Shown: positions 18,958-58,700, counted from the stretch's first letter. The stretch is DNA of 64,000 nt from an uncultured Planctomycetia bacterium (GCA_964460615.1 CAYWPX010000002.1:71220-135219), one strand, 5' to 3'. The notes: a model not told the origin generated them from the sequence alone. Numbers and translations are program-made.

Positions 18958-19004
18958 AATTATACCCCTTTCGGTTTACGGTATTAGGTTATCGTCTGCC
19001 TTCC

Positions 19005-19030: not shown

Positions 19031-19045
19031 GCGAACCGTTAACCA

Positions 19046-24203: not shown

Positions 24204-24294
24204 GATTTATTTAAACTCCGATTCGTACTTCGTCGTTCGTACTTCGTATATCGTTTCTTTTCGATGTACTATGTACGAAATACGATGTACTGCT
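24204..24294 (-). repeat. GTAC-rich tandem-heptamer element (family A copy 1) directly upstream of ilvN
   Basis: ttcgtac|ttcgtcg|ttcgtac|ttcgtat ... cgatgta|ctatgta|cgaaata|cgatgta. Confidence 0.55.
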
Positions 24295-25965
24295 TTACGC
24301 TAACGAATTAATCATCTTATTAATCGCCTGACCGGCCGGAACCATCGGAAAAACATTCTCTTCTTCCTCAACGACAAATTCCACCACAACCGTATTTGGA
24401 GTGTTTATAGCTTTCTCCAAAGCAGGCCTGACATCTTCTTTCTTTGCAACTCTAATGCCTACCGCGCCATAGGCCTCAGCCAGTTTTACAAAATCAGGAT
24501 TTTCTAAACGCACCTGAGAATATCTTCTCTTATAAAATAATTCCTGCCATTGTCTGACCATACCTAAGTAAGAATTATTAAGTATGATTATTTTGACTGG
24601 AATCTTATTAAATACCGCTGTTGCCAATTCCTGAATATTCATCTGAATAGAACCATCCCCGGCTATATCAAAAACAAGCCTCTCAGGACACCCTATCTGG
24701 GCGCCAATCGCGGCCGGAAACCCGAATCCCATTGTCCCAAGGCCGCCACTCGATAGAAAAGTTCTCGGTTCTTTATATTTAAAAAACTGGGCAGCCCACA
24801 TCTGGCTCTGGCCGACTTCAGTGACTATGATACAATCGCCTTTAGTGACCCTGTAAAGCTCCTCGATAACATACTGCGGTTTGATCTTTTTTGAATGTTC
24901 CGCATACACCAAAGGAAACTCTTTTTTCCATTCATTGATCTTAAACAGCCAATTTCCCGAATCACACGGGGAAACGATTTTATTTAATTCGGTTAAAATA
25001 CTCTTTGCATCACCGACGATCGGAATATGCACAGGCACATTTTTACTGACCGACGACGGATCAATATCGATATGGATAATATTGGCATGGGGGGCGAACT
25101 CATCGATCTTACCTGTAACCCTGTCGTCAAATCTTGCACCAATTGCAATGATCAAATCCGACTCCATTATAGCGTGATTCGCATAGGCCGTACCATGCAT
25201 ACCGAGCATCCCCAAAGACAACTCATGCTCCCCGGGAAATGCCCCCATAGCCATCAAAGTCGTAGTAACGGGCGCTTTTACTTTTTCGGCGAATTCCTTT
25301 ACTTCTTGGGAGGCATCGGCAATAATAGCTCCTCCTCCGACATAAATAATCGGGCGTTTGGAATTTGCTATTGCTTTTGCGGCTTTTTTTATCTGTCCCG
25401 GATGCCCTATATAAGTAGGCTTGTACCCCCTAATGGACGCTTCAGCCGGATAATGATACTCGGTCTCCTGGAGCTGAATATCACTCGGGAGATCTATAAG
25501 TACCGGCCCCGGACGGCCAGTGCGGGCAATATGAAATGCCTCTTTAATTATTTGAGACAGGTCTTCAATATTTTTAACTAAATAATTATGTTTTGTAATA
25601 GGACGCGTGATACCGGTTATATCGGCTTCCTGAAAAGCATCGTTTCCGATCAAAAATGTTTTTACCTGGCCTGTGATAGCAACCATCGGTATCGAATCCA
25701 TATACGCCGTCGCAATCCCCGTAACCAAATTTGTGGCACCCGGGCCTGATGTAGCAATACAGACTCCGACCTTTCCTGTGGCTCTGGCAAAACCATCCGC
25801 AGCATGCGCTGCTGCCTGTTCATGGCGGGTAAGCATAAAATTTAAACCGCCATCATATAAAGCATCAAAAAGAGGAAGGACCTGCCCTCCGGGGTAGCCA
25901 AAAACTATCTGCACTCCTTCTTTTTTTAAACTCTCAACAACTATTCTTGCTCCTGATAATTTCAT
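24295..25965 (-). CDS. ilvB: acetolactate synthase large subunit (thiamine-diphosphate enzyme)
   Basis: [27 protein letters not shown]...[15 protein letters not shown]. 556 aa. Confidence 0.9.
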
Positions 25966-26059
25966 TTAAAACCTCGCTTAAGCACTGCGTATTAAGTACG
26001 GCGTACGGCGCAAAAAACTTATTTTTCGCGATACGCTGTACACAATACGCTATACTGCT
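25966..26059 (-). repeat. GTAC-rich tandem-heptamer element (family A copy 2) directly upstream of ilvB
   Basis: gtacggcgtacggcgc ... cgcgata|cgctgta|cacaata|cgctata. Confidence 0.55.
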
Positions 26060-27712
26060 TTATTTGAACACTGCTCCTTCATCAGCTGACTGGACATGCT
26101 CGGAATATCTAACAAGGTATCCTTCGGTCACTTTCGGTTTTGGCTCCACCCACTTTGCCAAACGCGATTTAATTTCAGCTGCAGTCAATTTTATATCAAT
26201 GCTTCTTTTTGGTATATCGATCGAGATCTCATCTCCGTCTTTTACTATAGCTATAGGTCCGCCTGCCGCCGCCTCAGGCGATACATGGCCGATGCACGGC
26301 CCCCTGGTCCCGCCGGAAAATCTCCCGTCGGTGATAAGCGCTACGCTCTCTCCCAAACCCATACCCATAATAGCAGATGTTGCCGCAAGCATCTCTCTCA
26401 TCCCCGGGCCGCCTTTTGGGCCTTCGTATCTTATAACAACTACAGTACCTTCGGTTATCTTTTTATTCATGATGGCTTCCATTGCAGCCTCTTCCGAATC
26501 AAAAACCTTGGCAACGCCTGTAAATTTTTCCATCGCCTTTGATACGGCAGACTGTTTTACAATAGCACCATTCGGAGCGAGATTACCGAAAAGCACGGCG
26601 ATCCCGCCTTCTTTATGATAGGCATTATCCAATGGTCTTATAACGTCGTCGTCATCAACCCTTGCTTCGCGGGCTATCTGGGATATTTTTTTACCGCTAA
26701 CTGTATCAACATCATTAAGTTTTGATTGCAATCTTTTTATAACAGCGGGTATCCCCCCTGCATATTCAAGGTCTTCCATAAAATGTTCTCCGCCCGGGCG
26801 GATATTACTTATATGAGGTACGGATTTTGATATCTTATCGATCTCTTTTAAAGATAGCGGTATACCAAGCTCATTAGCAAGAGCTTTTATATGCAATACC
26901 GTGTTCGACGAGCCGCCAAGCGCCATATCTATAACTATGGCATTTTCAATAGCCTTTTTAGTCATTATTGATCGCGGAAGAATATTTTTCTTTACGAGCT
27001 GTACTACCCTTTCGCCGCTTGCGTAAGAGATCCTGTCTTTTTTTGCCAGTACCGCTAGAGCAGTCGCACATCCGGGCATGGACATACCCATCGCCTCCGT
27101 AACGCAAGACATGGTATTGGCCGTGTAAAGTCCCTGACAAGAACCAAAGCCCGGGCAAGCGCAGACCTCAAGCTCATTCAACTCTTCCTGATTTATTTCA
27201 CCGCTTTTAAATTGTCCTATCGCTTCAAACGTATCATGCACCAGATCAAGCCTTCGGCCTTTATATCTGCCGGTGATCATAGGGCCTGCGGTTACAATAA
27301 CCGTCGGAATATTAATCCTGGCGGTTGCCATAAGCATCCCGGGAGTGATCTTGTCGCAATTTGTCAAACAGACCAATCCGTCAAAAGAATGGGCTTTAAC
27401 AATAGTCTCTACCATGTCAGCTATCAATTCTCTCGACGGAAGAGAATATCTCATCCCCGCGTGGCCCATCGCAATCCCGTCGCAAATCCCGGGAACTCCG
27501 AAGAAAAACGGTACTCCTCCGGCTGCAATAATACCTCTTTCAATAAATCTTTCCAAGCGTTTCATCCCTATATGGCCGGGTATAATGTCATTAACAGTGG
27601 TCGCTACAGCGATAAAGGGTTTTCCCATATCGCTTTTTGAAAGTCCTGTTGCATAAAGAAGCGCCCTGTGCGGCACCCTCTCGACTCCGCGCTTGATTTT
27701 ATCTGATCTCAT
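26060..27712 (-). CDS. ilvD: dihydroxy-acid dehydratase
   Basis: [20 protein letters not shown] and [17 protein letters not shown] (Fe-S cluster Cys) as in IlvD. 550 aa. Confidence 0.9.
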
Positions 27713-27792
27713 ATAATCATCCTTTTAGTAATTCATCCTAAATATTGCCAAAGTTTTTTGGCATTTTTAAGGTAATACGCATAAATTTTTTG

Positions 27793-28488
27793 TTACCTTT
27801 TAGCTTCAATACCCTGAACCCACAACGCTATATTGGGCAAACCTGAAGGCATAAAGTCACTACTCCCAAACCATCTTACCGAAGCATCGCCCCACAGAAC
27901 ATTAAAACCTGTTTCGTGATTTTTCCTGTTAACATAATTCGGACAATCAACCGATATTATTTTATTCTTCACGCTCTCAAGGCTAAACGGCGGATCCGAA
28001 AAATTTGCCGGCCTTGCAACTGTCAGATAAGTACTTGTACAAGCGATATTATTGGTCATATTGTCGGGATTATAGCTGGCAGTGCCTTTCGCCCAATTAG
28101 CAGACGGACAAAAAAATACATCCGGGTCTTCCAAATACCTTGGGAACAAAGAGCCTATACTTGTCGTCTGCCCGCCAGCTGTCATTAAATTGGCGTTAAA
28201 AGTATACCCTGCAAAAAGATTTCTTGGCAATGGGGTAAAACCGTTGTTGTCATCGGCATATAGTTGCAAAGCCAGGCCTATTTGTCTGAAGTTGTTTGAA
28301 CAAAGGGCCCTTTTGCCCGATTCTTTAACTTTATTAATGGCCGGTAGTAATATTCCGGCCAAAATACCTGTTATAGCAATTACTACCAAAAGTTCTATTA
28401 AAGTAAACCCCTTCTTTTTGTATAAGTGTCCGGGGTTAGCAGTATTATCAAAAACGCATCCTAGGCTAATTATATTAATTTTTGTCAT
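27793..28488 (-). CDS. prepilin-type N-terminal cleavage/methylation domain protein with DUF1559-like C-terminus (PVC-type pseudopilin)
   Basis: KKKGFTLIELLVVIAITGILAGILLPAI is a class III signal. The C-terminus NVLWGDASVRWF resembles the DUF1559 H-X-DG-like tail. The leader is unusually long if the ATG at 28488 is used. Confidence 0.7.
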   Translation of the reverse strand: MTKINIISLGCVFDNTANPGHLYKKKGFTLIELLVVIAITGILAGILLPAINKVKESGKRALCSNNFRQIGLALQLYADDNNGFTPLPRNLFAGYTFNANLMTAGGQTTSIGSLFPRYLEDPDVFFCPSANWAKGTASYNPDNMTNNIACTSTYLTVARPANFSDPPFSLESVKNKIISVDCPNYVNRKNHETGFNVLWGDASVRWFGSSDFMPSGLPNIALWVQGIEAKR

Positions 28489-28537
28489 TTTATAGCCTTT
28501 TTTGGAAAATTTTAGCCTATTTTATTTAAATATTGTA

Positions 28538-28565
28538 ATTATATCATAAAGCCCCTGTTTGTCAA
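28538..28565 (-). promoter_or_regulatory. sigma70-type promoter with extended -10 (TTGACA-N16-TGaTATAAT) for the pilin-like gene
   Basis: The minus strand reads ttgacaaacaggggctttatgatataat. An inverted repeat ttgtcaattaaataaaatgacaa lies just upstream as a possible operator. Confidence 0.45.
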
Positions 28566-28650
28566 TTAAATAAAATGACAAAATATGAGTAATTTTCCTT
28601 TAATTTTGAGGAATTTTTATATATAATAAAGATATTAGGAGGGTTTATAC

Positions 28651-29781
28651 CTATTTGCTATAACTTCTTGGTACGCGGTCAGTTATGGAGCATACTATCT
28701 CATAAGGAATAGTTGCGGATAATTTGGCCAGCTCATCAATAGTTATAATATCCTTACCCTGCTTGCCTATTAATACCACTTCATCCCCAATTTGCACTTC
28801 TTTTATGTGGCCGACATCTATCATGGTCTGATCCATAGTTACCTTCCCTATCACCTTAGCGCGCTTTCCTCGGACCAGAACTTCCGCTTTATTTGAAAGG
28901 ATCCTGCCATAACCATCGGCATATCCTATGGGTAGCGTAGCAACCTTTGTAGGTTTTTGGGTAATATATGTCCTTCCATAACTAATCGATCTTCCGGCAG
29001 GGGTATCTTTTAAAAAAACAATTTTAGTTTTTAAGCTCATTGCCGGCTTCAGCTTTACAATATTGACAAAATGCCTTTTTGGATACATTCCATAAATAAT
29101 GATCCCGGGCCTGACCAGATTAAAATGCGATCTGGGTATATCTATTACGCCAATGCTATTGGCAACGTGCTTTAGCGGAATATCTATACCGATCTGCGCT
29201 GACTCATTTATTATCTCCTCAAAAGACTCCAATTGATAATTTGTAAAAAAATTGTCATGCCCGGCGCTTGCAAAATGAGTATAAATACCTTCGAGAACAA
29301 TGGAAGAAGTTTTGGAAATTGTCCTGATAAATCCGACTGCCTCCCTATGCCAAACACCGATCCTGCCCATCCCGGTATCTATTTTTATATGGGCCTTGGC
29401 CTTTTTTTTAAGGTTCAGGGAAACCTTGTCAATAAGCGGGATAAGATCGTCATTCCCAAGAGTGATGGTAATGTCATTCTCCACCATCGGGCGGATCTCT
29501 TCTTTTGTCACGCATCCAAGAACCAGTATAGGGGTCCTGATATTATTTCTTCTTAAATTTAAAGCCTCATCAACAGTAGCAACGCCAAAATAATCCACAT
29601 CTATGCCGGAAAGCGTTTTGGCCACTTCGAGGATACCATGGCCATAGGCATTGGCTTTTACCACAGCCATTACCTTGGTCTTACTCCCGACGAGTTTTTT
29701 TATTTCGCTATAATTGTATTTCACTGCCCCCAGATCTATCTCCGCGCATGTGGGACGGTGAAAAAATGGTTTCTTATTCAT
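28651..29781 (-). CDS. alr: alanine racemase
   Basis: VMAVVKANAYGHG (the PLP-lysine motif AVVKANAYGHG). 376 aa. Confidence 0.85.
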   Translation of the reverse strand: MNKKPFFHRPTCAEIDLGAVKYNYSEIKKLVGSKTKVMAVVKANAYGHGILEVAKTLSGIDVDYFGVATVDEALNLRRNNIRTPILVLGCVTKEEIRPMVENDITITLGNDDLIPLIDKVSLNLKKKAKAHIKIDTGMGRIGVWHREAVGFIRTISKTSSIVLEGIYTHFASAGHDNFFTNYQLESFEEIINESAQIGIDIPLKHVANSIGVIDIPRSHFNLVRPGIIIYGMYPKRHFVNIVKLKPAMSLKTKIVFLKDTPAGRSISYGRTYITQKPTKVATLPIGYADGYGRILSNKAEVLVRGKRAKVIGKVTMDQTMIDVGHIKEVQIGDEVVLIGKQGKDIITIDELAKLSATIPYEIVCSITDRVPRSYSK

Positions 29782-29895
29782 GAATACCTTTTAAAAATGC
29801 TTCTGGCTGCTGGCTACAAATTATTGGCCTGCGGCTATTTTTATAAATATATCACAAAATCCTTTATAATCAAATGACTAATAATCTTCTTATAA
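29782..29895 (-). repeat. spacer with a GGC-phase tandem heptamer array (ttctggc|tgctggc|tacaaat|tattggc|ctgcggc) and a candidate promoter (TTGATT-N16-TGaTATATT) for alr
   Basis: Read directly. The minus strand reads ttgattataaaggattttgtgatatatt. Confidence 0.35.
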
Positions 29896-30591
29896 TTATG
29901 GCTTAGATTTTTTTTCAAAGCCTCTTACACTGCAAAATTTGTGATATATATAAAGAGGTTCGAGCTTAAAAATATCCTCAAATTCCCTCTCTTTAATTTT
30001 TTTGAACCCGAGTTTCGCTATATTGCCAAGTTCCGGATAAAAGAATTCCGGTTCTGCAAAATTACTACCTATAAATTTTGACTCTATCTCATCCTTATAA
30101 ATACCCACTCCGTCCCCGACAAAAATCGCAGGACGTTTTAGTTTTTTTAATAACTCATCTATGGATAAGAGCATGTATTTGGAAATTCTGGCTAATTCGG
30201 ATCTTTTGTATCTATAAACCGCCGAATATACCATGCCTTTTTTTGCGTCTATTATCGGGACAATATCTTTGTCGGTATTTTTTATATTCAGAGCTATTGA
30301 GTCAAGCGAAGTCACGCTTACAACTTTTTTCCCCGTCACATAACTCAAACCTTTGACCAGCACCACCCCTATCCTGAGGCCGGTAAATGACCCAGGGCCT
30401 ATAACTATGACAATACTATCCATATCGGCTAATTTTAAACGGGCTTTTTTTAGAACTTTTTCTATAAAAACAATGATATCCCTTGAATGATTTAACTCTT
30501 CGGAAGAGATCATTTTAGAGACTACTTTATCATTTTTACTTATTGCAACCTGAAGTTTCTTTGAAGAAGTATCGATTAATAATAGATACAT
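29896..30591 (-). CDS. tsaB: tRNA t6A biosynthesis protein TsaB (YeaZ)
   Basis: MYLLLIDTSSKKLQVAI...GPGSFTGLRIGV, the YeaZ signature. Confidence 0.8.
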   Translation of the reverse strand: MYLLLIDTSSKKLQVAISKNDKVVSKMISSEELNHSRDIIVFIEKVLKKARLKLADMDSIVIVIGPGSFTGLRIGVVLVKGLSYVTGKKVVSVTSLDSIALNIKNTDKDIVPIIDAKKGMVYSAVYRYKRSELARISKYMLLSIDELLKKLKRPAIFVGDGVGIYKDEIESKFIGSNFAEPEFFYPELGNIAKLGFKKIKEREFEDIFKLEPLYIYHKFCSVRGFEKKSKP

Positions 30592-30621
30592 ATTTTTGCC
30601 TCTTGCCTGAAGCCTAAAGCT

Positions 30622-30649
30622 CTAATAGGTGCCGATAGGCACCTATTAG
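30622..30649 (-). promoter_or_regulatory. perfect 12-bp-stem hairpin ctaataggtgcc-gata-ggcacctattag overlapping the tsaE stop codon
   Basis: Seen directly. No U-tract follows. Confidence 0.4.
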
Positions 30650-31101
30650 AATAGCTTCTTTACGATTCTTTTATACCTATCCCCAAAGGGGATAAATTTG
30701 ATTCTTCTTTTATTATCACCGGCAACTTTAAACTCTATCCTCAGATGTTCTTCGGGAATAAGATCGGGCGCTTTATCGGCCCATTCCATTGCAGTCACTC
30801 CGTTACCAAAAAAATATTCGCTTGCGCCGATATCTTCGAGCGATTTCTCGTCATTTAAGCGGTATATGTCAAAGTGATAAAGATTCAGCCTTCCTTTGTA
30901 CTCTTTTACAATCACAAATGTAGGGCTATTCACATATCTATGGTCTATGCCTAACCCTTTTGCTAACCCCTTCACAAAAACCGTTTTTCCTGAACCAAGG
31001 TCCCCGACAAGCGCAAGAAAATCACCTTTTTTAAGATTTTTGCCGAGTGAGCAGGCAAATTTTTTTGTTTCGTCTATATTTATTGTGATCAGCTCATTCA
31101 T
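30646..31101 (-). CDS. tsaE: tRNA t6A biosynthesis ATPase TsaE (YjeE)
   Basis: LALVGDLGSGKTVFVKGLAKGLG P-loop and SPTFVIVKEY. 151 aa. Confidence 0.8.
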   Translation of the reverse strand: MNELITINIDETKKFACSLGKNLKKGDFLALVGDLGSGKTVFVKGLAKGLGIDHRYVNSPTFVIVKEYKGRLNLYHFDIYRLNDEKSLEDIGASEYFFGNGVTAMEWADKAPDLIPEEHLRIEFKVAGDNKRRIKFIPFGDRYKRIVKKLF

Positions 31102-31104
31102 ATT

Positions 31105-33074: not shown

Positions 33075-33075
33075 T

Positions 33076-34167: not shown

Positions 34168-34185
34168 ATTAAAAATTGATCCTTA

Positions 34186-35229: not shown

Positions 35230-35355
35230 TTATCCGTTCTTCGTACGGGGTACGGCGTCGTGCGTGTTAAAAAATTAGTTATTATTTATATTTATTTTCA
35301 CGCCGTACACAATACGTTATACGCCGTACTTTTTTGTTAAGAGCCATGATCACAA
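35230..35355 (-). repeat. GTAC-rich tandem-heptamer element (family A copy 3) with an AT-rich core, directly upstream of the CPBP gene
   Basis: ttatccgttcttcgtacggggtacggcgtcgtg ... AT-rich 40 nt ... cgccgta|cacaata|cgttata|cgccgta. Confidence 0.55.
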
Positions 35356-36735: not shown

Positions 36736-36737
36736 CT

Positions 36738-42139: not shown

Positions 42140-42145
42140 GTGAAT

Positions 42146-42838: not shown

Positions 42839-42924
42839 AACCCAATGTTACAGGTTACAGATCACATGCCACAGTTATTAGATCTTAATGCAACCTATGA
42901 CTTGCGGCTTGTAACATTTTTAAT

Positions 42925-43392: not shown

Positions 43393-43426
43393 CGCCTAAC
43401 CTCTCCTCACCCCGAAATTCAAATAT

Positions 43427-44146: not shown

Positions 44147-44190
44147 TATTGTTTTAATATTTAGTTATTTGTAATTTATTTTTAGCTTTT

Positions 44191-44222
44191 CCCATGAGCT
44201 TAGAGCCATGAGCCAAGAGCTA
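44191..44222 (-). repeat. ATGAGC-heptad array (family B copy 3): cccatgag|cttagag|ccatgag|ccaagag
   Basis: Read in the yacL-ispD spacer. Confidence 0.5.
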
Positions 44223-45248
44223 TTTTTTCCTTCCCTGTCCTTCCTCAAGTTTTGCAAATATCATCCTGCCGGCTGATGTCTGGAGAACACTGGTCACTAA
44301 AACCTTTAGATTCTGTCCAATAAGATGTCTTGAATTATCCACCACTACCATTGTTCCGTCATCAAGATACGCAACTCCCTGGTTATACTCTTTGCCTTCT
44401 TTTGTAATCCTTACTTCCATAAGCTCGCCCGGAAGTACCACCGGCTTAAGCGCATTGGCTAAATCATTTATATTTAAAACCGGCACTTTCTGAAGCTCGG
44501 CTATTTTATTAAGGTTGTAATCGTTTGTTAATACCTTAGCTCCCAGAAATTCCGCCAGCTTTATTATCTTGGCGTCAACATCTGTTATATCCGGAAAGTC
44601 TTCCTCGTGTATCTTTACATCCATCTTTGTGCTTTTCTGGATCTTATTTAATATATCCAATCCGCGTCTTCCGCGGTTTCTCTTGAGGGTATCCTGGGAA
44701 TCCGCTATCTGCTGAAGCTCCCTAAGGACAAACCTGGGGATTATCAATCTTCCTTCAATAAATTTTGTTTCGAAGATATCGGCTATTCTCCCATCTATGA
44801 TCACGGATGTATCCAGAATAATTATGTCTTCTTTCTGGTCCTGCCTGGCAAATTTTACATAGGGGATTATTATATTAAATTCATCCTTACCGCGCATTGA
44901 GATCACCATGCCTAAATAACAAAAAACCGTTATAAAAACTATCTGAAGCGACGCATACATCTTTGCATCCATCGGAATAAGCCTGAGAATTATAGAAAGA
45001 AGCCATGCCATGAAAAACCCGAACACTAAGCCAAACAAAGCCGCAGAAAGGTTTCGTATGGATGCGCGCCTTAATACAACTTCTAATAAAATTATGCCCA
45101 GCCCCGCTACAAAACCAAAAGCGCTACCGGCGATCGCCCATTCAAATGAAAAATTCCCGAATAAAGACCCGATATAATAACCGACTATCGTACTTACAAG
45201 CGCAAAAAATATTCTTAAAAATATTAGTGTCATACGCCAGCTCCTCAA
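44220..45248 (-). CDS. yacL: PIN and TRAM domain membrane protein (YacL-like)
   Basis: N-terminal TM helices, then [14 protein letters not shown] (PIN) and a C-terminal TRAM-like [24 protein letters not shown]. Confidence 0.7.
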
Positions 45249-45297
45249 GTTTCTAGTTAATTATTAGTTCGTTATATTATGTAATTTCGCCCTAAGC

Positions 45298-47408: not shown

Positions 47409-47458
47409 TATTTCCCTCCTAAAATAAATTCTGTCTTTTTACCGTATGATTAAAATGA

Positions 47459-48226: not shown

Positions 48227-48323
48227 TATTTATCCGTTCTGCGTACGGTGTACAACGTACTGCGTGATGTAAAAATTATTTATTTTTTACGCCGTACGAA
48301 ATACGACATACGATGTACTGCTT
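48227..48323 (-). repeat. GTAC-rich tandem-heptamer element (family A copy 4) directly upstream of mlaF
   Basis: tatttatccgttctgcgtacggtgtacaacgtactgcgtg ... tacgccgtacgaaatacgacatacgatgtactgc. It shares its first approx. 22 nt with copy 3. Confidence 0.55.
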
Positions 48324-49130: not shown

Positions 49131-49149
49131 CTGTTATCTTTGCCCTTTT

Positions 49150-50958
49150 TTAAAATTTAACCTTATGTTCCATGCCGATAAACTCTTCATTCTGGCCCTT
49201 CAGCTTCATTATCAGATTATCCTCTGATTTCACCTTATATTTAAACTCAACTTCGCTTCTTTTGGTCTCAGGGTTTTCATTATCATTATCCCGCCTGGTC
49301 CAGGTTTTAAGATTGATGTCAAAATCCTTGCCTACCTGTTTTGATAGGCTTACCTCGTCCTTTTCATTACGCTTTGCGATGTCCCAGCCGTCAAAAACAA
49401 TCGTGTTGTTATCAGTTGTCACCTGCAGGTTTTCCAAAAAACTGCTTTTCCCGATCTTGTTTGTATCTAAAAACCCGCTCAAAAGCAGATAGCCATTTTT
49501 TACTTTTATCCTTGAGTCCTCTATCTTAAGTATCGAATCTCTCCCGGTGAGGCTGGTGGTCATTTTTTCAAAATCAACATTCCCTATTGTACCACTATTC
49601 ACCTCGATCCGGCCTTTTGAGATATTCTCCTTTAAGTTGCCCTTGATTTCAAATTTGGCATTAAGGATCCCCGTAATACCCGCTCTTTCAGATGCCGGGA
49701 AAAGTTGCAAAAATTTTACAAGGTCCAGCTTATTTATTGAAAATGCCAGTTGCCCATTATAGGGTTTTTTATTATCAATAAACCCTGAGAAGCTGAACTC
49801 ATCTGTCAGATCAAGATTTTTAACTTCAAATCTGTCTTTATTGATAATAGCCTCTCCGGTCAATTTTCCATAAGGCTTATAATTTACAATGAGCTCATCG
49901 GATGCTAATTTTATCGAAATATCACGCTCGATATTCGAAGAACAAAAAACCCTGGTTACAAAATCAAAATTCCCTACTTTGCAGTGGTCAATCCTGGCAT
50001 CATAAAAAACTTCGGGGAATCCTGAGAAATCAACCGCTAAATCAATGTCACCTTCAAACAATTTAATATCAAAATTAGAAACAAGCTCTTTTAGGTCAAA
50101 TTGGCCGCTTAATAACCGCTTACTATCAATGTCAACGTTATATATATTTAAAAACTGATTATCAATGAAATATTCAACATCAAATTTTGTCAAAAGATCG
50201 TTGAATATCACGGTATTCCCGCTTACCAATATCGACCTGGTATCTCCTGCAATATCAATAAAACCGTTAAAATCATTATTCTTTATAAGCCCTGACATTG
50301 TAAGCTCCGGGCCAAAAAAAACATTTCTGATCCTGCCGCTTAATATCGTCTCTGTATCAAAAAATCTGCCTTTGACCTTATCTAGGATTATATCCTTATT
50401 ATCAAAGATTATATTCCCGTTCAAATTATTCAGGACGTATTTCCCTTCGGAGTTTAAAATAGCTCCGTCCGAAACAAATATGCCAAGCGGCTTATGCCAA
50501 AGTATATATTCAGGAAATTTAGTTAAAAATATTTTTGCCAGATCAAGTTTATCAAAATTTTGCTTATAAAAACTATCTTGAAGATCCTTCACTAAATACA
50601 GCCTTGGCCCATCAATCTCGATATGGCTCAGGACATCATAATTCTTCAAAAATATATCCCAGATCTTATAATTAAATGTAAGGGTTTTTATCTCAAGGAT
50701 ATTTTCCAGCTTATTATTGGATACCTTTGAAACCCTGATATCTCTTATCCCGATGTCCCGGGCAAATCCGCCTTCAATATCGCCGATCTTTACTATAAGA
50801 CCTGTATTTTTTGAAACTACCGTTTCAATAGTAATAAGAAAATTGCTTATCAGCGTATCTTTTTTTGCGTCAAAATATAGAAAAGCTTGCGCTAACAAAA
50901 CTACCAGTAGCATTGTAAGCAAAATAAGCCTTCTATTTTTGCCATGCCGGTTACGCAT
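49150..50958 (-). CDS. large membrane-anchored beta-rich protein, possibly AsmA/TamB-like
   Basis: N-terminal signal-anchor (LILLTMLLVVLLAQAF), then an approx. 570-aa repetitive segment with alternating hydrophobic residues. No catalytic motif recognised. Sits next to the Mla genes. Confidence 0.4.
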   Translation of the reverse strand: MRNRHGKNRRLILLTMLLVVLLAQAFLYFDAKKDTLISNFLITIETVVSKNTGLIVKIGDIEGGFARDIGIRDIRVSKVSNNKLENILEIKTLTFNYKIWDIFLKNYDVLSHIEIDGPRLYLVKDLQDSFYKQNFDKLDLAKIFLTKFPEYILWHKPLGIFVSDGAILNSEGKYVLNNLNGNIIFDNKDIILDKVKGRFFDTETILSGRIRNVFFGPELTMSGLIKNNDFNGFIDIAGDTRSILVSGNTVIFNDLLTKFDVEYFIDNQFLNIYNVDIDSKRLLSGQFDLKELVSNFDIKLFEGDIDLAVDFSGFPEVFYDARIDHCKVGNFDFVTRVFCSSNIERDISIKLASDELIVNYKPYGKLTGEAIINKDRFEVKNLDLTDEFSFSGFIDNKKPYNGQLAFSINKLDLVKFLQLFPASERAGITGILNAKFEIKGNLKENISKGRIEVNSGTIGNVDFEKMTTSLTGRDSILKIEDSRIKVKNGYLLLSGFLDTNKIGKSSFLENLQVTTDNNTIVFDGWDIAKRNEKDEVSLSKQVGKDFDINLKTWTRRDNDNENPETKRSEVEFKYKVKSEDNLIMKLKGQNEEFIGMEHKVKF

Positions 50959-51001
50959 ATTGAATCCAATTCTAAAAATAAATTAGCCAAACAAACTATT
51001 A

Positions 51002-53419
51002 CTATTCAAAAACCAATTTACTATCTTTAACAGTAGCTTTTACAACCTGATTTTCTTTAAACTTACCGCTTATTATCTCTTCTGCAAGAGGGTCTTCGAT
51101 ATACCTCTGAATTGTCCTTTTAAGCGGCCTGGCTCCGAAAACAACGTCGAAACCTTTTTCTATCAGGAATTCTTTTGCTTCGATGGTCATTTCGAGCTCA
51201 ATATTTTGTTCTTTAAGCCTACCCATGACTTCATCAAGCTCTATATCAACTATTTTCAAAAGGTCTTCTTTCTCCAAAGGCTTAAAAACAATGATATCGT
51301 CAATTCTGTTCAAAAATTCCGGCTTAAAGGTCTTTTTGATCTCTTCAAGGATCCTTGTTTTCATATCCTGATAGGTGACATCCGATTTGGCCTGCACAAA
51401 CCCTAATGATCCTTGTTTTCTGAGCATCTCTGCGCCGATATTGGATGTCATCAGAATGATAGTATTCTTAAAATCAACTTTTCTCCCGAATGAGTCTGTA
51501 AGGCGTCCTTCTTCGAATACCTGCAATAAGATATTAAAAACATCGGGGTGCGCCTTTTCAATCTCATCAAGTATAATTACCGAATAAGGCCTGCGCCTTA
51601 CTTTTTCAGTGAGCTGTCCGCCCTCTTCATACCCGACATATCCCGGAGGAGCTCCGACAAGCCTTGAAACATTGAACTTTTCCATGTATTCAGACATATC
51701 TATCTGAATGACTGCATTCTCATCGCCGAACATATATTCGGCAAGGACTTTGCCCAAAAGCGTTTTTCCTACACCCGTCGGCCCCAAAAATATAAATGAA
51801 CCAATGGGCCTTTTTGGGTCTTTTATCCCGGAACGCGATCGCCTGACAGCATGTGCAATAGCGCTTATCGCCTCTTTCTGCCCAACAACCTTCTTCGTGA
51901 GGCCTTCCTCCATCTTAAGGAATTTTTCAGTCTCTTTTTCTTCCAACCTCAGAAGAGGGATACCTGTGATCTTGGAAACAATAGTAGCTATGTCATCGGC
52001 AGTTACTTTTGGATAAGACTCTGCTTTGGACTCTTTCCAGTCTTTCTTAATCTTTTCAAGTTTCTCTTTAGCTTTTCTTTCTTTATCCCTAAAAGTCGCG
52101 GCCTTTTCAAAATCCTGGCCTTTAACGGCGGATTCCTTCTCTTTTTTGAACTCTTTTATCTCATCCTCAACTTTTTTTAGATCCGGCGGGGCAACCATAG
52201 TATTAAGCCTTGCCCTTGAACCTGCTTCGTCTATTAGGTCTATTGCCTTATCCGGCAAAAACCTGCCGCTGATGTACCTGTCGGAAAGTTTTGCCGCAGC
52301 CTCTACCGCTTCATCGAGAAACTTCACCCTGTGATGAGCCTCGTATTTATCCCTTAAGCCTTTTAATATCTCAACTGTTTCCAAGACGCTCGGCGGCTCG
52401 ACCATGATCGTCTGGAATCTTCTTTCCAAAGCAGCGTCTTTTTCAATATGCTTTCTGTATTCATCAAGTGTTGTCGCGCCTATACATTGTATTTCGCCTC
52501 TTGAAAGAGCCGGCTTTAGGATATTTGAAGCATCTATCGCCCCTTCAGCCCCGCCTGCTCCTACGAGAGTATGGAGCTCATCAATAAATACAATGATATT
52601 CTCGGAACGCTTTATCTCGTCCATTACAGTCTTTATTCTTTCTTCAAACTGTCCTCTGTATTTTGTCCCTGCGACCATCAAAGCAAGATCAAGCACTATC
52701 ACTCTTTTATCTTTAAGGACTTCGGGAATATCTCCCACTACTATTTTCTGCGCCAGGCCTTCAACGATCGCGGTCTTTCCTACGCCGGCCTCGCCTAAAA
52801 GTACGGGATTATTTTTTGTCCGCCTTGAAAGGATTTGGATAACTCTTTCGATCTCATTTTTTCTGTTCACTACCGGGTCAAGCTTATCCTGCCTTGCTAA
52901 AGCTGTCAGGTCCCTTCCGAATGCATCGAGTGCCGGAGTCTTTGCCTTCTGTTGTTTTGGTGGAGCGCCGAAACCCGGTGTAGCCGATCCGAGTAACTGC
53001 ATAACTTCATTTCTTACTTTATCGAGGTCCAGGCCAAGATTTATCAAAACCTGCGCAGCAACACCCTCGCCTTCGCGTATAAGCCCAAGAAGGATATGCT
53101 CAGTGCCGATATAATTATGCCCCATGGATTCCGCTTCATCCATGGCCAGTTCAATAGCCTTCTTGGCTTTAGGATTAAAAGGAATATCGCCTGAAACAAC
53201 TGTAGTGGGCCCGGGTTGAACGACTTTTTCTATTTCCATCCTTATTTTTTCAGGGTCTAATCCGACTCCGACCAAAACCGCAGCAGCAACACCTTCGCCC
53301 TCTCGTATAAGCCCAAGAAGGATATGCTCAGTCCCGATATAATCATGATTAAACCTTTTGGCTTCCTCTTTTGCCAATAATATTACTTTACGAGCTCGCT
53401 CTGTAAATCTATTGAACAT
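51002..53419 (-). CDS. clpC: ATP-dependent Clp protease ATP-binding subunit ClpC
   Basis: Duplicated Clp_N repeat (YIGTEHILLGLIREGEGVAA x2), two AAA+ modules (GEAGVGKTAIVEGLA; GPTGVGKTLLGKVLA) and a UVR-like coiled coil between them. Confidence 0.9.
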   Translation of the reverse strand: MFNRFTERARKVILLAKEEAKRFNHDYIGTEHILLGLIREGEGVAAAVLVGVGLDPEKIRMEIEKVVQPGPTTVVSGDIPFNPKAKKAIELAMDEAESMGHNYIGTEHILLGLIREGEGVAAQVLINLGLDLDKVRNEVMQLLGSATPGFGAPPKQQKAKTPALDAFGRDLTALARQDKLDPVVNRKNEIERVIQILSRRTKNNPVLLGEAGVGKTAIVEGLAQKIVVGDIPEVLKDKRVIVLDLALMVAGTKYRGQFEERIKTVMDEIKRSENIIVFIDELHTLVGAGGAEGAIDASNILKPALSRGEIQCIGATTLDEYRKHIEKDAALERRFQTIMVEPPSVLETVEILKGLRDKYEAHHRVKFLDEAVEAAAKLSDRYISGRFLPDKAIDLIDEAGSRARLNTMVAPPDLKKVEDEIKEFKKEKESAVKGQDFEKAATFRDKERKAKEKLEKIKKDWKESKAESYPKVTADDIATIVSKITGIPLLRLEEKETEKFLKMEEGLTKKVVGQKEAISAIAHAVRRSRSGIKDPKRPIGSFIFLGPTGVGKTLLGKVLAEYMFGDENAVIQIDMSEYMEKFNVSRLVGAPPGYVGYEEGGQLTEKVRRRPYSVIILDEIEKAHPDVFNILLQVFEEGRLTDSFGRKVDFKNTIILMTSNIGAEMLRKQGSLGFVQAKSDVTYQDMKTRILEEIKKTFKPEFLNRIDDIIVFKPLEKEDLLKIVDIELDEVMGRLKEQNIELEMTIEAKEFLIEKGFDVVFGARPLKRTIQRYIEDPLAEEIISGKFKENQVVKATVKDSKLVFE

Positions 53420-53514
53420 TTATTGCCTCCGTGTAATTCAGATGACAGAAGTCAGAAAACAGAAATCAGATTTTTTTCTGTCTTCTGACCTCTTTTTTCT
53501 ATTTTCTTTCTTTA
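53420..53514 (-). promoter_or_regulatory. 5' spacer of clpC carrying a CAGAA-phase heptamer array and hairpin (gtcagaaaacag...ctgtcttctgac), related in words to the ilvC-leuA spacer
   Basis: cagatga|cagaagt|cagaaaa|cagaaat|cagattt then ttttctgtcttctgac. It shares gatgacagaag with 22294-22408. Confidence 0.45.
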
Positions 53515-54561
53515 TTATTTCAATTTTTCTCTTATTAGATCAGATCTTTTAACATCCCTCTCTACAGAGGATAATATCTTTCCTTCCAATTTCTGCAGAT
53601 GAGCAGGCTGAGAAAGTATTAAAATCTCATTTATCATTTTAAGGTCGATATTTTTCGTAAGCTCCATATCAACCCCCAATTTCACATCCGATAACAATCT
53701 TACGGCCTCTTCGCTCGTTATGATCCTGGCGCTTTTTAAAGTGCCATACGCACGAAAGATCCTATCAGAGATAAGTTCCCGGCTTTTTGTAAAAAGTATA
53801 TCCCTTGCACTTTTTTCCCTGACGATTATCTGTTTCACTATCTTTTCAAGATTATCTATTACATCGCTTTCAGGCCTTCCCAAGGTTGACTGGTTCGACA
53901 TCTGAAAAAAGTTACCGACTGCTTCGGTCCCTTCGCCATAAAACCCTCTTACTGCAAAATTTAATTTTGCGAGAGCCTGGAAGATCTTTCCTATCTGATT
54001 AGTCATCACCAGAGCCGGCAGATGCATCATTACTGATGCTCTCATACCGGTACCGGTATTGGTAGGACATGCCGTCAGATACCCGAACTTGGAAGAAAAA
54101 GCGATGTTTAATTGAGAAGAAATTTCTGTATCTATCTTATCGATTATCTTCATTGAGTCGGACAGATTAAGCCCTGACTGCATAGCTTGCAGCCTCAGGT
54201 GGTCCTCTTCATTTATCATCAAAGATATTGTTTCGCGGTCGTCGATTAAAAGTGCCTTGCCGTCACCTTTTACGGCATGCTCTCTGGAAATCAAATGCCG
54301 TTCTACTAAGAATATCCTGTCAAGGTCACTTAGATTATTCATGTACAAAAAAAGTGAATTTTTCGGAAAAGAAGATTTTTCTACGGCCTTCTTGACCGCA
54401 TCCAAAATCTCTTCGAGTTTCTTCTTAGAGGCCCAGTTCGGAAAAGGCAACTTGTCCAGATTGCGTGCCAGCCTGACCCTTGAAGACAGCACTATATCCA
54501 CATTAGGGCCGGTCCCCTTGAGCCATTCTCCTGTTGAATAAAGCAATTCATCCAGTTTCAT
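53515..54561 (-). CDS. mcsB: protein arginine kinase McsB (ATP:guanido phosphotransferase)
   Basis: TACPTNTGTGMRASVMMHLPAL is the phosphagen-kinase active-site signature. 348 aa. Confidence 0.85.
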   Translation of the reverse strand: MKLDELLYSTGEWLKGTGPNVDIVLSSRVRLARNLDKLPFPNWASKKKLEEILDAVKKAVEKSSFPKNSLFLYMNNLSDLDRIFLVERHLISREHAVKGDGKALLIDDRETISLMINEEDHLRLQAMQSGLNLSDSMKIIDKIDTEISSQLNIAFSSKFGYLTACPTNTGTGMRASVMMHLPALVMTNQIGKIFQALAKLNFAVRGFYGEGTEAVGNFFQMSNQSTLGRPESDVIDNLEKIVKQIIVREKSARDILFTKSRELISDRIFRAYGTLKSARIITSEEAVRLLSDVKLGVDMELTKNIDLKMINEILILSQPAHLQKLEGKILSSVERDVKRSDLIREKLK

Positions 54562-54572
54562 TATCAGATATC

Positions 54573-55061
54573 CTATTTTTTCTCAAGCTCTTTTATCAGA
54601 TCGCGCAGTTTTGCCGCCTCTTCAAATTCTTCTTTCTCAATCGCCACTCTAAGCTTTTTCTTCAACTCCTCGATATCCAGTTCTGACTTGACTGTTTTTG
54701 GTAGCATCGCCGGCACCTTTCCTAAATGTTGGCTTGATCCGTGTATTCTTTTTAACAAAGGGTCCAGATTTTTCTTGAAGGATGTATAACATTCACTGCA
54801 TCCGAGCCTGCCTGTCTTTTTAAAATCTCTGTAAGTCATGTTGCAATTTTTGCATTTTATTGCAAGCTCTTCTCCTTTTTCTATCTGCGTCCCAAAATCC
54901 GCTAAACCTGCCAGCAAATCCGCCAGCCCGAAGTGGTCTTCCATCTCCGAGCCCTTCTTAATTGCGCACTCCTCACAAAGATGCAGCTTCGTGATCTGAT
55001 CATTTATTATTTCGGTCAGATGTACCGTTGCTTCATTTTTACCGCAAATATTGCACAGCAT
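54573..55061 (-). CDS. mcsA: McsA-like protein with zinc fingers and a UVR motif
   Basis: CNICGKNEATVHLTEI...CEEC, a second CKNC...CSEC, and C-terminal EEFEEAAKLRDLIKELE (UVR). Confidence 0.75.
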   Translation of the reverse strand: MLCNICGKNEATVHLTEIINDQITKLHLCEECAIKKGSEMEDHFGLADLLAGLADFGTQIEKGEELAIKCKNCNMTYRDFKKTGRLGCSECYTSFKKNLDPLLKRIHGSSQHLGKVPAMLPKTVKSELDIEELKKKLRVAIEKEEFEEAAKLRDLIKELEKK

Positions 55062-55088
55062 AATTACTACCCCTTTTTAGCCCATCAA

Positions 55089-55113
55089 CTATGAGCTATG
55101 AACCATGAGCTGA
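55089..55113 (-). repeat. ATGAGC-heptad array (family B copy 4) upstream of mcsA: ctatgag|ctatgaa|ccatgag|ctga
   Basis: Read 25-45 nt upstream of the mcsA start, where a CtsR-type operator would sit in Firmicutes. Confidence 0.5.
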
Positions 55114-55116
55114 TAA

Positions 55117-55758
55117 TTATTTATTATTAAGCTTTTTTGATCTCAGATCGCTTGTAAGCTCGTCTATCTCCTGCAGTTGTTCAGTCAGTTTTTCAATATT
55201 TACATTATCTTTTTTAAGGTCCGACATGACTAAGCTTATTTTATCTTTTACCTGATCGATAACCCTCAGGTCCTGATACATCTTATCGCGAAGCGAATGG
55301 ACCATATGATTGAATGCCCCCGCCATCTCTTTAAGCTGATCTTTTTTTCTTATCTGGACCGTCTGAAGCTCGTTATCGACTCCAACGAGATTGATAAATT
55401 TTGTCAACCTAAAAAGAGGGCCTGCTATCCTATGAGATGAATATATCCCGACAAAGAGCAATAGTATACCCATAAATAGCGCCGCCAAGATGATTTTTAT
55501 AACAAATGAATTCTCTATTGATTTTATATATTCTTTTGATAAGGCATTGTCGCCGACCATTCTATAGAAAAGCTCTAAATACTCCTTATTTAGGTACCAA
55601 AGCGCAAACCCAAATATCAATGTTATCAGAGTAACATGCAAAATCAACTGGCCGCTATAAGCAAGCTGGAGCGGCTTATTTACCAGATATTGCGTACGTT
55701 TATAATTTTTTTTCGCCATCTTTCCCTCCGATTTTTGTAAAAACAAGCGATTAAGCAA
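55117..55758 (-). CDS. membrane protein with HAMP domain
   Basis: Two TM helices flank a periplasmic segment, then IAGPLFRLTKFINLVG...LKEMAGAFNHMVHSL (HAMP-like) and a coiled coil. Confidence 0.5.
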   Translation of the reverse strand: MLNRLFLQKSEGKMAKKNYKRTQYLVNKPLQLAYSGQLILHVTLITLIFGFALWYLNKEYLELFYRMVGDNALSKEYIKSIENSFVIKIILAALFMGILLLFVGIYSSHRIAGPLFRLTKFINLVGVDNELQTVQIRKKDQLKEMAGAFNHMVHSLRDKMYQDLRVIDQVKDKISLVMSDLKKDNVNIEKLTEQLQEIDELTSDLRSKKLNNK

Positions 55759-55832
55759 TTATGCTATTATGCGATTAGGTATTTTTTACCTAATTACCCA
55801 ATCACATAATCGCCCAATCGCTGATTTTTTAC
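55759..55832 (-). terminator. long imperfect nested palindrome (GCGATTA-type 8-mers x4, inner 8-bp hairpin attaggta-ttttt-tacctaat, inverse arm), followed on the transcript strand by UGUUUUUAC; candidate ilvE terminator
   Basis: The plus strand reads gcgattaa|gcaattat|gctattat|gcgattag gtatttttt acctaatt ... taatcgcccaatcgc. Confidence 0.35.
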
Positions 55833-56708
55833 TTAATACTTCACGCCTTCTTTTTTTGTAAGCTTTTTGAATTCCTGTATCAAGAACAATGTCTTCTCTC
55901 CGGGTTTTCCGCTGCCGATTATCCTGCCGTCAAGCTTGACCACCGGGATAACCTCTGCGGCAGTACCTGTAAGAAAACACTCATCTGCATTAAAAATATC
56001 GTGCCTCGATAACACCGCCTCTTTAAATGAAACTTCTTTTGTGGATTTAGCGATATCTATGACTGCATTTCTGGTTATTCCGCACAATGCGCCCATATAA
56101 GAAGGAGGTGTAGTAAGTGCGCCATTTTTAATGATAAAAATATTATCACCCGAGCACTCTACGACATATCCTGCGTTATTCAGCATAATACATTCTTCGC
56201 AACCCGCTTTAACAGCTTCAATCTTTGCCATGATATTATTTAGATAATTAAGAGATTTTATCTGAGGATTAAGCGCCTCCGGGATATTGCGCCTTGTGGC
56301 GACAGTCACCAATTCCAAGCCTTCTTTATATAATTTTTCAGGATAGAGAGTGATCTTATCCGTTATGATAATTATTGTGGCTTTAGAACATTTTCTCGGA
56401 TCGAGCCCAAGGTCCCCTTTGCCTCTCGTAACGACAAGTCTGATATAAGCGTCCGTGAGATTGTTTATTTTAAGCGTTGCAACAACAGCCTCGATCATCT
56501 CTTTTTTTGAAATAGGGATTTCAAGCATTATCGACCTGGCGGATTCATAAAGCCTATCTATATGCTCCTTAAGCTTAAAAACAAGGCTGTCGTATGACCT
56601 TATTCCCTCAAAAACACCGTCACCATAGAGAAGCCCGTGGTCAAATACAGATATCTTTGCATCATCCTTTTCATAATACTGCCCGTCGATATAAATTTTT
56701 AGTCCCAT
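55833..56708 (-). CDS. ilvE: branched-chain amino acid aminotransferase (class IV PLP enzyme)
   Basis: VFDHGLLYGDGVFEGIRSY...TRRNIPEALNPQIKSLNYLNNIMAKIEA...ECFLTGTAAEV. Confidence 0.85.
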   Translation of the reverse strand: MGLKIYIDGQYYEKDDAKISVFDHGLLYGDGVFEGIRSYDSLVFKLKEHIDRLYESARSIMLEIPISKKEMIEAVVATLKINNLTDAYIRLVVTRGKGDLGLDPRKCSKATIIIITDKITLYPEKLYKEGLELVTVATRRNIPEALNPQIKSLNYLNNIMAKIEAVKAGCEECIMLNNAGYVVECSGDNIFIIKNGALTTPPSYMGALCGITRNAVIDIAKSTKEVSFKEAVLSRHDIFNADECFLTGTAAEVIPVVKLDGRIIGSGKPGEKTLFLIQEFKKLTKKEGVKY

Positions 56709-56825
56709 AATTACCTCTTATCCCGTACTTCGCCCATCGTATTTCGTACATTGTTTTTTAAAATTATTATTTTAATTTTTTCAATATACGATATACGAAG
56801 TACAATGTACTGTTTTTTTAAAGTA
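56709..56825 (-). repeat. GTAC-rich tandem-heptamer element (family A copy 5) with an AT-rich core, directly upstream of ilvE
   Basis: ccgtact|tcgccca|tcgtatt|tcgtaca ... AT-rich ... atatacg|atatacg|aagtaca|atgtact. Confidence 0.55.
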
Positions 56826-58680: not shown

Positions 58681-58700
58681 AATTTGGTTAATGGTTGTTA

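Follow-up and report, generated by a model that had tools for sequence, protein, structure and literature searches.

Two classes of described bacterial element come close to the spacers analyzed here. Intervening sequences (IVS) in rRNA, as found in Coxiella burnetii and Leptospira, have terminal inverted repeats that form a stem, and the loop may hold an S23p gene; such IVS are considered selfish, their mobility being unknown (PMC4990558). The Coxiella IVS, 428 nt long and located in 23S rRNA, has an S23p open reading frame (ORF) in its loop, terminal inverted repeats that form a 28-bp stem inside which RNase III cuts, and, in the stem region, two or three tandem GACAGAT plus GACAGAA units, the number depending on the strain; excision by RNase III has been shown for Coxiella and others, and the element has been described as selfish and of unknown origin (PMC4990558). 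The second class is that of tandem 7-nt repeats, including the STRR and LSSR families, TAACTGA in Beggiatoaceae and GGGAATC in Xanthomonas, which are intergenic, often lie by start codons and occur as several words per genome, with some inverted pairs noted in Xanthomonas (PMC4679880, PMC4692102). Here we describe five spacers rich in GTAC heptamers in a 64,000-nt stretch of DNA (the window) from an uncultured Planctomycetia bacterium (GCA_964460615.1 CAYWPX010000002.1:71220-135219), and we conclude that they are probably gene-less, IVS-like hairpin elements residing in mRNA spacers.

According to the literature, heptameric repeats are over-represented, sit next to start codons, keep their position while varying in sequence, and now and then form inverted pairs (PMC4679880; PMC4692102; bioRxiv 10.1101/2022.06.06.494920). 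Variation of heptamer copy number in 7-nt steps has been reported for Coxiella (PMC4990558) and Cyanothece. The heptamer papers (PMC4679880, PMC4692102) make no link to S23p or IVS, and Omnitrophota are not among the taxa they describe. In the literature searched, heptameric repeats occur together with an IVS only in the Coxiella paper (PMC4990558), and we found nothing there on repeats of Candidatus Omnitrophota, in which the ilvB sequence places the window.

The GTAC spacers and period-7 arrays of the window

The five GTAC spacers form a genuine family of hairpins whose arms are inverted arrays of heptamers. An earlier note on this DNA, which had grouped them, placed them correctly (Table 1), and there are exactly five copies in the window. 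For the transcribed (minus) strand, an alignment of the five copies over their whole length (alignment A1) gives a layout of four nnCGTAY units, an A/T-rich loop and four RTACGnn units, followed by a purine tract resembling a Shine-Dalgarno (SD) sequence and then the start codon; in copy 1 a GGAG SD sequence lies 4 nt past the stem. Four to five of the seven positions in each unit are conserved, and the phasing is strict. The AT-rich core that the note had described is present as this loop, which by the alignment columns measures 8-36 nt and not 30-45 nt; the A/T-rich tract of copy 5 is longer because its innermost arm units are A/T-rich too. Copies 3 and 4 do have a common end at the start codon, where an identical run of about 22 nt had been claimed; by eye, 22 of 24 positions are identical, and identity is 75% over 63 nt. 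A variant unit, CGTCGTG, is common to copy 3 and to two loci outside the window, L212 (five times) and L010; GCGTCGTGCGT gives 11 matches against 1 expected.

The similarity among the spacers exceeds chance. The pattern GTAYN3GTAYN3GTAY, with at most one mismatch, has 25 matches in the window against 0.62 expected; all of them fall within the five spacers, and none of 100 shuffles reached 25. The four-unit pattern gives 14 matches against 0.00 expected. The 525 nt of the five spacers contain 22 of the 110 GTAC sites in the window, and an independent repeat search grouped four of the right arms at 74-81% identity. The idea that GTAC is a restriction-modification site was rejected, the tetramer showing no avoidance outside the elements (88 observed and 96 expected).

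All five copies fold as hairpins, and, as in IVS, their complementary termini form an extended stem-loop. Fold z-scores are -4.8 for copy 1 and -4.7 for copy 2 with dinucleotide shuffles, and -2.7, -2.5 and -7.7 for copies 3, 4 and 5 with simple shuffles. RNAalifold finds 25 consensus pairs over the five copies, with 87% of cells paired compared with 81% in shuffles, a value matched in only 2 of 500 shuffles. Shifting the partner arm by one column abolishes the pairing. The conserved CGTAY/RTACG cores carry most of it, the two variable positions of each unit often forming small internal loops, and arms within one copy match slightly better than arms from different copies. As to compensatory changes in the arms, which the note had proposed as a check, seven pairs are changed on both sides, and the RNAalifold covariation term is close to zero. 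An excess of G-U pairs on the sense strand, considered as a sign of selection on RNA, amounted to 22 versus 9 in the window but to 56 versus 50 across 23 heptamer hairpins from the window and Omnitrophota loci, and was discarded.

Each GTAC spacer is the complete gap from the stop codon of one gene to the start codon of the next. The neighboring gene names were confirmed by NCBIfam, and three of the five copies precede the branched-chain amino acid (BCAA) genes ilvN, ilvB and ilvE, as the note had reported. Its description of the spacers as lying directly upstream of a start codon is true of their position, but only because they are intercistronic: the window's 56 long ORFs all read from the minus strand, so spacers upstream of starts also directly follow co-directional stop codons. 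A promoter and terminator scan of the gene strand of copies 1-3 revealed no promoter-like or terminator-like site. A single perfect promoter of the sigma-70 type was found in the vicinity of the ilv genes (Table 1), and its position would put copies 1 and 2 inside a transcription unit. No rRNA, tRNA or Rfam family was found in the window at gathering scores.

The GTAC family is one class of a genome-wide, phylum-crossing population of such arrays. Intergenic sequence in the window has a lag-7 autocorrelation of 0.383 (0.362 without the five copies), compared with about 0.28 at other lags and 0.25 at lag 7 in coding sequence. A strict detector identified 16 lag-7 arrays, against 0.45 in shuffles and 1-5 at other lags, and all 16 lie within intergenic gaps or at gap edges. 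Among gaps of at least 35 nt, 19 of 29 are periodic at p<0.05, including the ilvC/leuA gap, and arrays are missing from the promoter-bearing gaps (1180-1507, 28489-28650, 60572-60754). Head-to-tail 7-nt intergenic units thus occur above chance, as they do in STRR and LSSR. Approximately nine different words are present in 64 kb. CGTAY is one word class, and the others are GACAGAn/TCTGAnn, AGGGnnn/ACCCTnn, GCTCATR, GTGAATn/ATTCACn, GGTTAAC/AACCnnn, CTGTAAC and AGGCnnn; the non-GTAC words mostly form inverted pairs that fold well (z -4 to -7). Unlike those of STRR and LSSR, the window's units are degenerate, only 4-5 of the 7 positions being fixed, and mostly make inverted-pair hairpins that fill whole gaps. 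The GACAGAn word in the ilvC/leuA spacer (22294-22408) is the same word as the GACAGAA/GACAGAT repeats of the Coxiella IVS. A contig assembled by Logan from SRR12487046 (L082; 2,967 nt) is 100% identical to positions 1-1945 of the window, and the same strain is therefore present in that public run; for steps in heptamer copy number it is the only same-strain contig, identical over these 1945 nt.

To compare the ilv region with its relatives, we used 22 Omnitrophota ilvB loci from GTDB, some of which have plentiful lag-7 arrays and others none. The gene order ilvD-ilvB-ilvN-ilvC-leuA-aroE-x-aroC is common to the window and the loci L003 and L007, where the same junctions carry heptamer hairpins made of other words (TCGCATA in L003; ATTAAGA, TCGGTTn, GAGATAC and CCAGAAA in L007), and in six further loci (L002, L005, L009, L015-L017) the ilv genes abut without a spacer. 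The closest relative, L001, has an ilvB with 86% amino-acid and 75% nucleotide identity. Its ilvD/ilvB spacer keeps three GTACATA units and is 53% identical to that of the window, compared with 48% at third codon positions, and its ilvB/ilvN spacer begins with AAATCAA-type units. The position of the elements is fairly stable across relatives; their sequence is not. The GTAC elements occupy the stop-to-SD gaps of co-directional housekeeping genes, and their turnover is fast.

A metagenome scan for four CGTAY units returned at least 120 stretches, and 120 loci (0.72 Mb) were examined. The GC content of the contigs spans at least 0.29-0.71 among the matches listed, many of the arrays are hairpins, and many adjoin arrays of other words. 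Among the same matches, 28 genes have their starts at CGTAY arrays, including folD, metG, gltX, pheT, accC, rplC, rpoA and recO; none of the 28 is an ilv or leu gene, and the GTAC elements are not specific to BCAA genes. One-armed CGTAY arrays are oriented 16 versus 12 relative to the downstream gene, with ORF calls being noisy in GC-rich contigs. Long perfect arrays also occur, such as CGTACTA x10 (L102), GCGTATT x11 (L109) and CAGGGTT x10 (L078).

S23p genes between inverted heptamer arms

Elsewhere, S23p genes are found enclosed by this architecture, in some cases with the very word of the GTAC copies. S23p is a bAvd-like four-helix-bundle protein, known in Pfam as "23S rRNA-intervening sequence protein" (PF05635/PF22296), and homologs were sought by an iterative search in which all ORFs of all loci were compared. 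The window itself has one such cassette, between lysS and lolC/E (Table 1). Its S23p gene lies between GTGAATn arms upstream (59086-59115) and ATTCACn arms downstream (58699-58728), which pair in the minimum-free-energy fold through 38 long-range pairs. The upstream 30-nt stretch is duplicated 46 nt away at the 3' end of lysS (59132-59161).

Among the 120 loci chosen only for a CGTAY array, five contain an S23p gene, and each of these adjoins CGTAY-type heptamers with the GTAC core, on both sides in L114, L177, L137 and L195 and on one side in L183. The ilvB loci, 1.2 Mb in total, yielded no S23p gene. As a check free of selection for CGTAY, six S23p homologs were taken by protein similarity alone, and inverted heptamer arms surround the gene in all six loci (Table 1). 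The CGTAC word of the GTAC copies is found in two of them, an Omnitrophota metagenome-assembled genome (MAG; L212) and a Sedimentisphaerales MAG (L215). In the minimum-free-energy structures of 7 of 7 cassettes folded, the two arms join over 27-55 pairs into a long-range stem that encloses the ORF. Two S23p proteins are 65-73% identical when both belong to the GTGAAT group, 58-63% when both belong to the CGTAY group and 50-57% when they come from different groups; the flanking word therefore tracks the S23p lineage in unrelated genomic contexts, so arms and gene travel together. The IVS feature of an S23p gene in the loop is accordingly seen in the window cassette (58731-59093), L212 and L215, and is absent from the five GTAC copies.

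In a plasmid collection, nearly all S23p homologs come from Nostoc, Calothrix and other cyanobacteria or from Riemerella, which are taxa known for heptamer repeats, and inverted heptamer arms are present in three of six plasmid S23p regions (Table 1). The layout is thus also seen in cultured organisms.

Two of the S23p loci show further features. The GTGAAT-armed cassette of L206 (1291-1964) has tRNA-Leu on one side and tRNA-Gly on the other, within a tRNA cluster, that is, in a stable-RNA operon other than rRNA. In L212, blocks of about 52 nt (GGGGCGAGCGGGATT plus CGTACAG units) recur at least five times within positions 880-2000, on the upstream side of the S23p gene as well as some 500 nt downstream of it.

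Weighing of the explanations

Our preferred explanation is that the GTAC spacers are IVS-like elements that lack a gene. Two inverted heptamer arms would pair into an imperfect stem of 25-55 bp, constructed as in bacterial IVS, and this stem would close either a short A/T loop, as in the five GTAC copies, or a loop holding an S23p/bAvd-like gene. The elements would be co-transcribed with their operons and fold in the mRNA, where RNase III would probably cut the stem, as it does in rRNA IVS; by this analogy, the cut would divide the polycistronic RNA, each new end keeping half of the stem. Any effect on expression would be generic or nearly neutral rather than specific to amino acids. Words might spread and become homogenized within a genome through copying of elements or arms together with 7-nt slippage. 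The gene-carrying relatives of the GTAC elements look like mobile cassettes, and the shared architecture and word suggest descent from, or kinship with, such cassettes. Relative to rRNA IVS, which lie in helix 25 or 45 of 23S rRNA, the GTAC copies are located between protein-coding genes (and the L206 cassette in a tRNA operon), have a loop of 8-36 nt with no ORF, and are putative RNase III substrates.

Several observations weigh against this explanation. None of the five copies contains an ORF or a recognizable ORF remnant, and the putative link of descent to S23p cassettes therefore draws on shared architecture and word. The 23 heptamer hairpins of the window and the Omnitrophota loci carry no RNA-specific signature, with 56 wobbles in the sense and 50 in the antisense direction and 55 transversions, and the near-zero covariation term of the five copies points the same way. 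The ilvD/ilvB spacer of L001 does not fold (z +0.43), and this loss, together with its near-neutral drift, indicates that selection on the hairpin is weak. The array-rich loci L003 and L007 have no S23p gene in the 12-22 kb sampled, and two of the six plasmid S23p regions have an array on one side only and one has none. Heptamer hairpins might also come first, with S23p genes inserting into them or simply being tolerated there. The arms resemble inverted repeats at the DNA level, subject to neutral decay and to renewal.

In the main rival explanation, the arrays are a simple-sequence by-product of replication slippage favoring 7 nt and of template switching at quasi-palindromes, with neither identity nor function as elements, and S23p genes are tolerated within them. 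The long perfect arrays of L102, L109 and L078 indicate recent slippage, arm mismatches have no strand bias, and spacer divergence is near neutral, with the hairpin lost in the closest relative. Heptameric simple sequence repeats are moreover over-represented in many bacteria, for which slippage has been the explanation (PMC4679880, PMC4692102). Random seeds, however, do not predict that 5 of about 22 array-bearing gaps have one word and 4 another, nor does slippage readily account for a word that co-varies with the S23p lineage across unrelated contexts, for arms at 6/6 S23p loci chosen by homology, or for promoter gaps and coding sequence without arrays. We consider this explanation unlikely, if less so than the other rivals.

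Word-specific binding of a protein to heptamer arrays is possible, and the arrays would then serve global post-transcriptional control by a reader with a 7-nt period, such as an S23p pentamer or a HutP-type ring, the GTAC set being one regulon. The strict phasing and the 4-5 conserved positions per unit are as expected of binding sites, the array ends just 5' of the SD sequence, the word follows the S23p lineage, and sites for translational regulators have been proposed for heptamers in Beggiatoaceae and Nostoc (PMC4679880; bioRxiv 10.1101/2022.06.06.494920). Against this, some nine words in 64 kb would require about nine readers, the lone S23p gene of the window has the GTGAAT word and not CGTAY, genes adjoining one word have no common function, and the word at a given junction differs between species. 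As an account of the GTAC set, such control is improbable.

The earlier note had interpreted the family as a cis module of a BCAA-responsive regulator, either operator or structured leader, common to ilvN, ilvB and ilvE. Three of the five copies do precede ilv genes, and the closest relative also has GTAC heptamers at ilvD/ilvB. However, the other two copies precede unrelated genes; ilvC/leuA, in the same operon, has the GACAGAn/TCTGAnn word, and ilvN/ilvC has other elements again; and the ilv copies form no subcluster, copies 3 and 4 being the closest pair. The presence of GACAGAn at both ilvC/leuA and mcsB/clpC means that BCAA genes are not tied to GTAC, nor GTAC to BCAA genes. At the syntenic ilv junctions of other Omnitrophota there are unrelated words or no spacer, and even in L001 the ilvB/ilvN spacer begins with a different unit. 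Since the ilv copies do not cluster and none of the 28 genes downstream of metagenome CGTAY arrays among the matches listed is ilv or leu, the BCAA interpretation is not supported. A leader of the T-box, attenuator or riboswitch type is not indicated by elements that are intercistronic and internal to the operon of promoter 28538-28565, have no Rfam match and, in copies 1-3, no terminator-like site; nor is an operator indicated by a motif that, in the relatives, the metagenome loci and the five copies, is neither enriched at nor conserved before pathway genes. The three copies at ilv genes are explained by their being generic filler of intercistronic gaps.

HutP of the Bacillus hut operon, an amino-acid-responsive ring protein, reads (NAG-N4) x3 with a 7-nt period. 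To our knowledge, HutP-type binding is the only known mechanism that would fit a BCAA-responsive reading. In contrast to HutP sites, the conserved triplet here is UAC or UAU and not UAG, many words occur side by side, the window encodes no HutP-like protein, and the location is intercistronic rather than in a leader before a terminator. A BCAA-responsive module is already largely refuted and very improbable, and in annotation the GTAC spacers should not be taken as amino-acid regulators.

REP hairpins stabilize upstream mRNA segments, and Correia elements of Neisseria are cut by RNase III in mRNA. Like the GTAC elements, repetitive extragenic palindromes (REP) and the related BIME and REPIN, as well as Correia elements, are dispersed extragenic hairpins; they are co-transcribed in operons, as the GTAC elements would be. 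The note had offered a REP-like or MITE-like (miniature inverted-repeat transposable element) selfish element as its alternative, which is apt insofar as the family is dispersed, fast-evolving, extragenic and hairpin-forming, with copies of about 90-125 nt and several families per genome. It fails on the definitions of REP and MITE. The 56 window proteins include no RAYT, Y1 or other transposase and no insertion sequence (IS), an XerC/D-type integrase being the only recombinase. The arms are tandem heptamers whose words vary between loci rather than a unique palindrome with a conserved GTAG head, there are no terminal inverted repeats with TA duplication as in Correia elements, no target-site duplications or flanking direct repeats are seen by eye at the five copies, and the element boundaries are stop and start codons. 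A classical DNA-level mobile repeat, whether REP/REPIN with RAYT or MITE with terminal inverted repeats and target-site duplications, is thus highly improbable. The REP/RAYT, MITE, leader and operator models each miss a defining feature. Integron attC sites, which likewise form hairpins between co-directional genes, were ruled out, the genes here being syntenic housekeeping genes.

A broader and much more tentative proposal can also be made. Bacterial heptamer repeats in general, including those of cyanobacteria (STRR), Xanthomonas, Beggiatoaceae, Bacteroidota and many uncultured phyla, might be the stems of one widespread class of IVS-like cassette. Autonomous members would carry the gene for an S23p/bAvd-like protein, each matched to the word of its cassette, and gene-less hairpins such as the GTAC spacers would be non-autonomous derivatives; these would colonize rRNA, tRNA operons and mRNA gaps, where RNase III would remove or cut them in the RNA. 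We regard this generalization as doubtful, though conceivable. In diversity-generating retroelements bAvd acts together with a reverse transcriptase, so spread through an RNA intermediate is conceivable. The data link the heptamer repeats, whose function and origin have been a question since about 1990, with the very common four-helix-bundle/S23p genes, whose function has likewise been a question, and with rRNA IVS. Hairpins of this kind, if cut in mRNA, would determine stability cistron by cistron in the long operons, all on one strand, that are found in Omnitrophota and in other uncultured phyla.

Feature positions and further repeats

Table 1. Positions of the heptamer-array elements and a promoter in the window, and arm words flanking S23p genes in other loci and on plasmids
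Feature	Position	Strand	Details
GTAC copy 1, ilvB/ilvN spacer	24204..24294	(-)	5' arm 24262-24290, loop 24254-24261, 3' arm 24225-24253
GTAC copy 2, ilvD/ilvB spacer	25966..26059	(-)	5' arm 26027-26055, loop 26011-26026, 3' arm 25982-26010
GTAC copy 3, tatD-radical-SAM/CPBP protease spacer	35230..35355	(-)	5' arm 35301-35329, A/T loop 35265-35300, 3' arm 35236-35264
GTAC copy 4, mlaE/mlaF (MlaF-like ABC ATPase) spacer	48227..48323	(-)	5' arm 48290-48318, loop 48265-48289, 3' arm 48236-48264
GTAC copy 5, lolD/ilvE spacer	56709..56825	(-)	5' arm 56782-56810, loop 56754-56781, 3' arm 56725-56753
S23p/bAvd-like cassette, between lysS and lolC/E	58681..59161	(-)	ORF 58731-59093 = PF05635
GACAGAn/TCTGAnn hairpin, ilvC/leuA spacer	22294..22408	(-)	inner GC hairpin; fold z -6.8
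Second GACAGAn/TCTGAnn hairpin, mcsB/clpC-type spacer	53420..53514	(-)	fold z -5.8
AGGGnnn/ACCCTnn heptamer hairpin	8712..8792	(-)	same word in hairpin within 1-234
GGTTAAC/AACCnnn arms with inner perfect hairpin, prepilin-peptidase/aroC spacer	18958..19045	(-)	
GTTACAn/CTGTAAC heptamer hairpin	42839..42924	(-)	
GCTCATR one-armed array	55062..55116	(-)	word also at 2552-2600 (inverse orientation), 13108-13141, 44195-44223
GTGAAT-word array, one-armed, gene-less, secA/lnt spacer	62306..62370	(-)	word of the window's S23p cassette
Sigma-70-type promoter, only perfect one near ilv genes	28538..28565	(-)	12/12 matches, with TG
L203 S23p arms			GTGAATAG and CTATTCAC, one unit each; GTGAAT word
L206 S23p arms			GTGAATn x4 and ATTCACG x2
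L209 S23p arms			GTGAATn and ATTCACT x3
L212 (Omnitrophica) S23p arms			CGTACAG x ~9 and RTACGCn x8
L213 S23p arms			CGTGACT x3 and AGTCACG
L215 (Sedimentisphaerales, groEL/dnaJ) S23p arms			CGTACnG x5 and RTACGCn x4
Plasmid S23p arms, N. punctiforme			GGGTGTn/ACACCCT
Plasmid S23p arms, Riemerella			AAGGTTn/AACCTTn
Plasmid S23p arms, Stanieria			GGCAGAA/TCTGCCn

The window (1-64000) has its 56 genes on one strand, a constant GC skew and few visible strong promoters. Its genes have housekeeping functions (lipopolysaccharide core, lpxK, topA, aro, ilv/leu, metG, cysS, ispDF, mla, clp, lol, lysS, secA).

Two heptamer hairpins have in their loops a perfect inner hairpin rich in GC (CCTGCC...GGCAGG), at 22352-22371 and 18972-19000, and a comparable inner hairpin is found at 11705-11740 of L007; they may represent a second small repeat inserted into the first. 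The ilvN/ilvC gap (23402-23729) contains a pair of paralogous hairpins, both about 87 nt long and both with a short GC hairpin after them (fold z -7.8); the pair has in common CCCnACGAnT..GATAAAATTATCGAG with 85% identity over 27 nt. The ilvD/ilvB spacer of L010 contains a similar motif, TCGGGATnATTCGCCC. The ilvN/ilvC hairpins are a repeat family distinct from the heptamer arrays.

Two repeats lie within coding sequence. At 13727-13822, inside the XerC/D-type integrase ORF (13207-14169), there are about six tandem copies of a 12-nt unit, TCCGAAGGAGCA; the copies are in frame, so that the protein has a repeat of four residues. A 114-nt direct repeat with 78% identity (53006-53119 and 53234-53347) is found in the Clp ATPase gene (51002-53419).

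Heptamer arrays are also abundant at ilvB loci outside Omnitrophota. Six such loci (L028, L072, L049, L068, L046, L078) contain 5-14 arrays per 11-22 kb, often as inverted pairs, and array-rich contigs of this kind are labeled Deltaproteobacteria, Nitrospiraceae, Desulfotomaculum, Nitrospinae and Proteobacteria. Two unrelated contigs, L089 and L130, have a common hairpin motif, TCTCCCC..GGGGAGAGG and then a G-rich (A/T)TnAGGGTGAGGGGG, located directly upstream of CGTAY arrays and a start codon.

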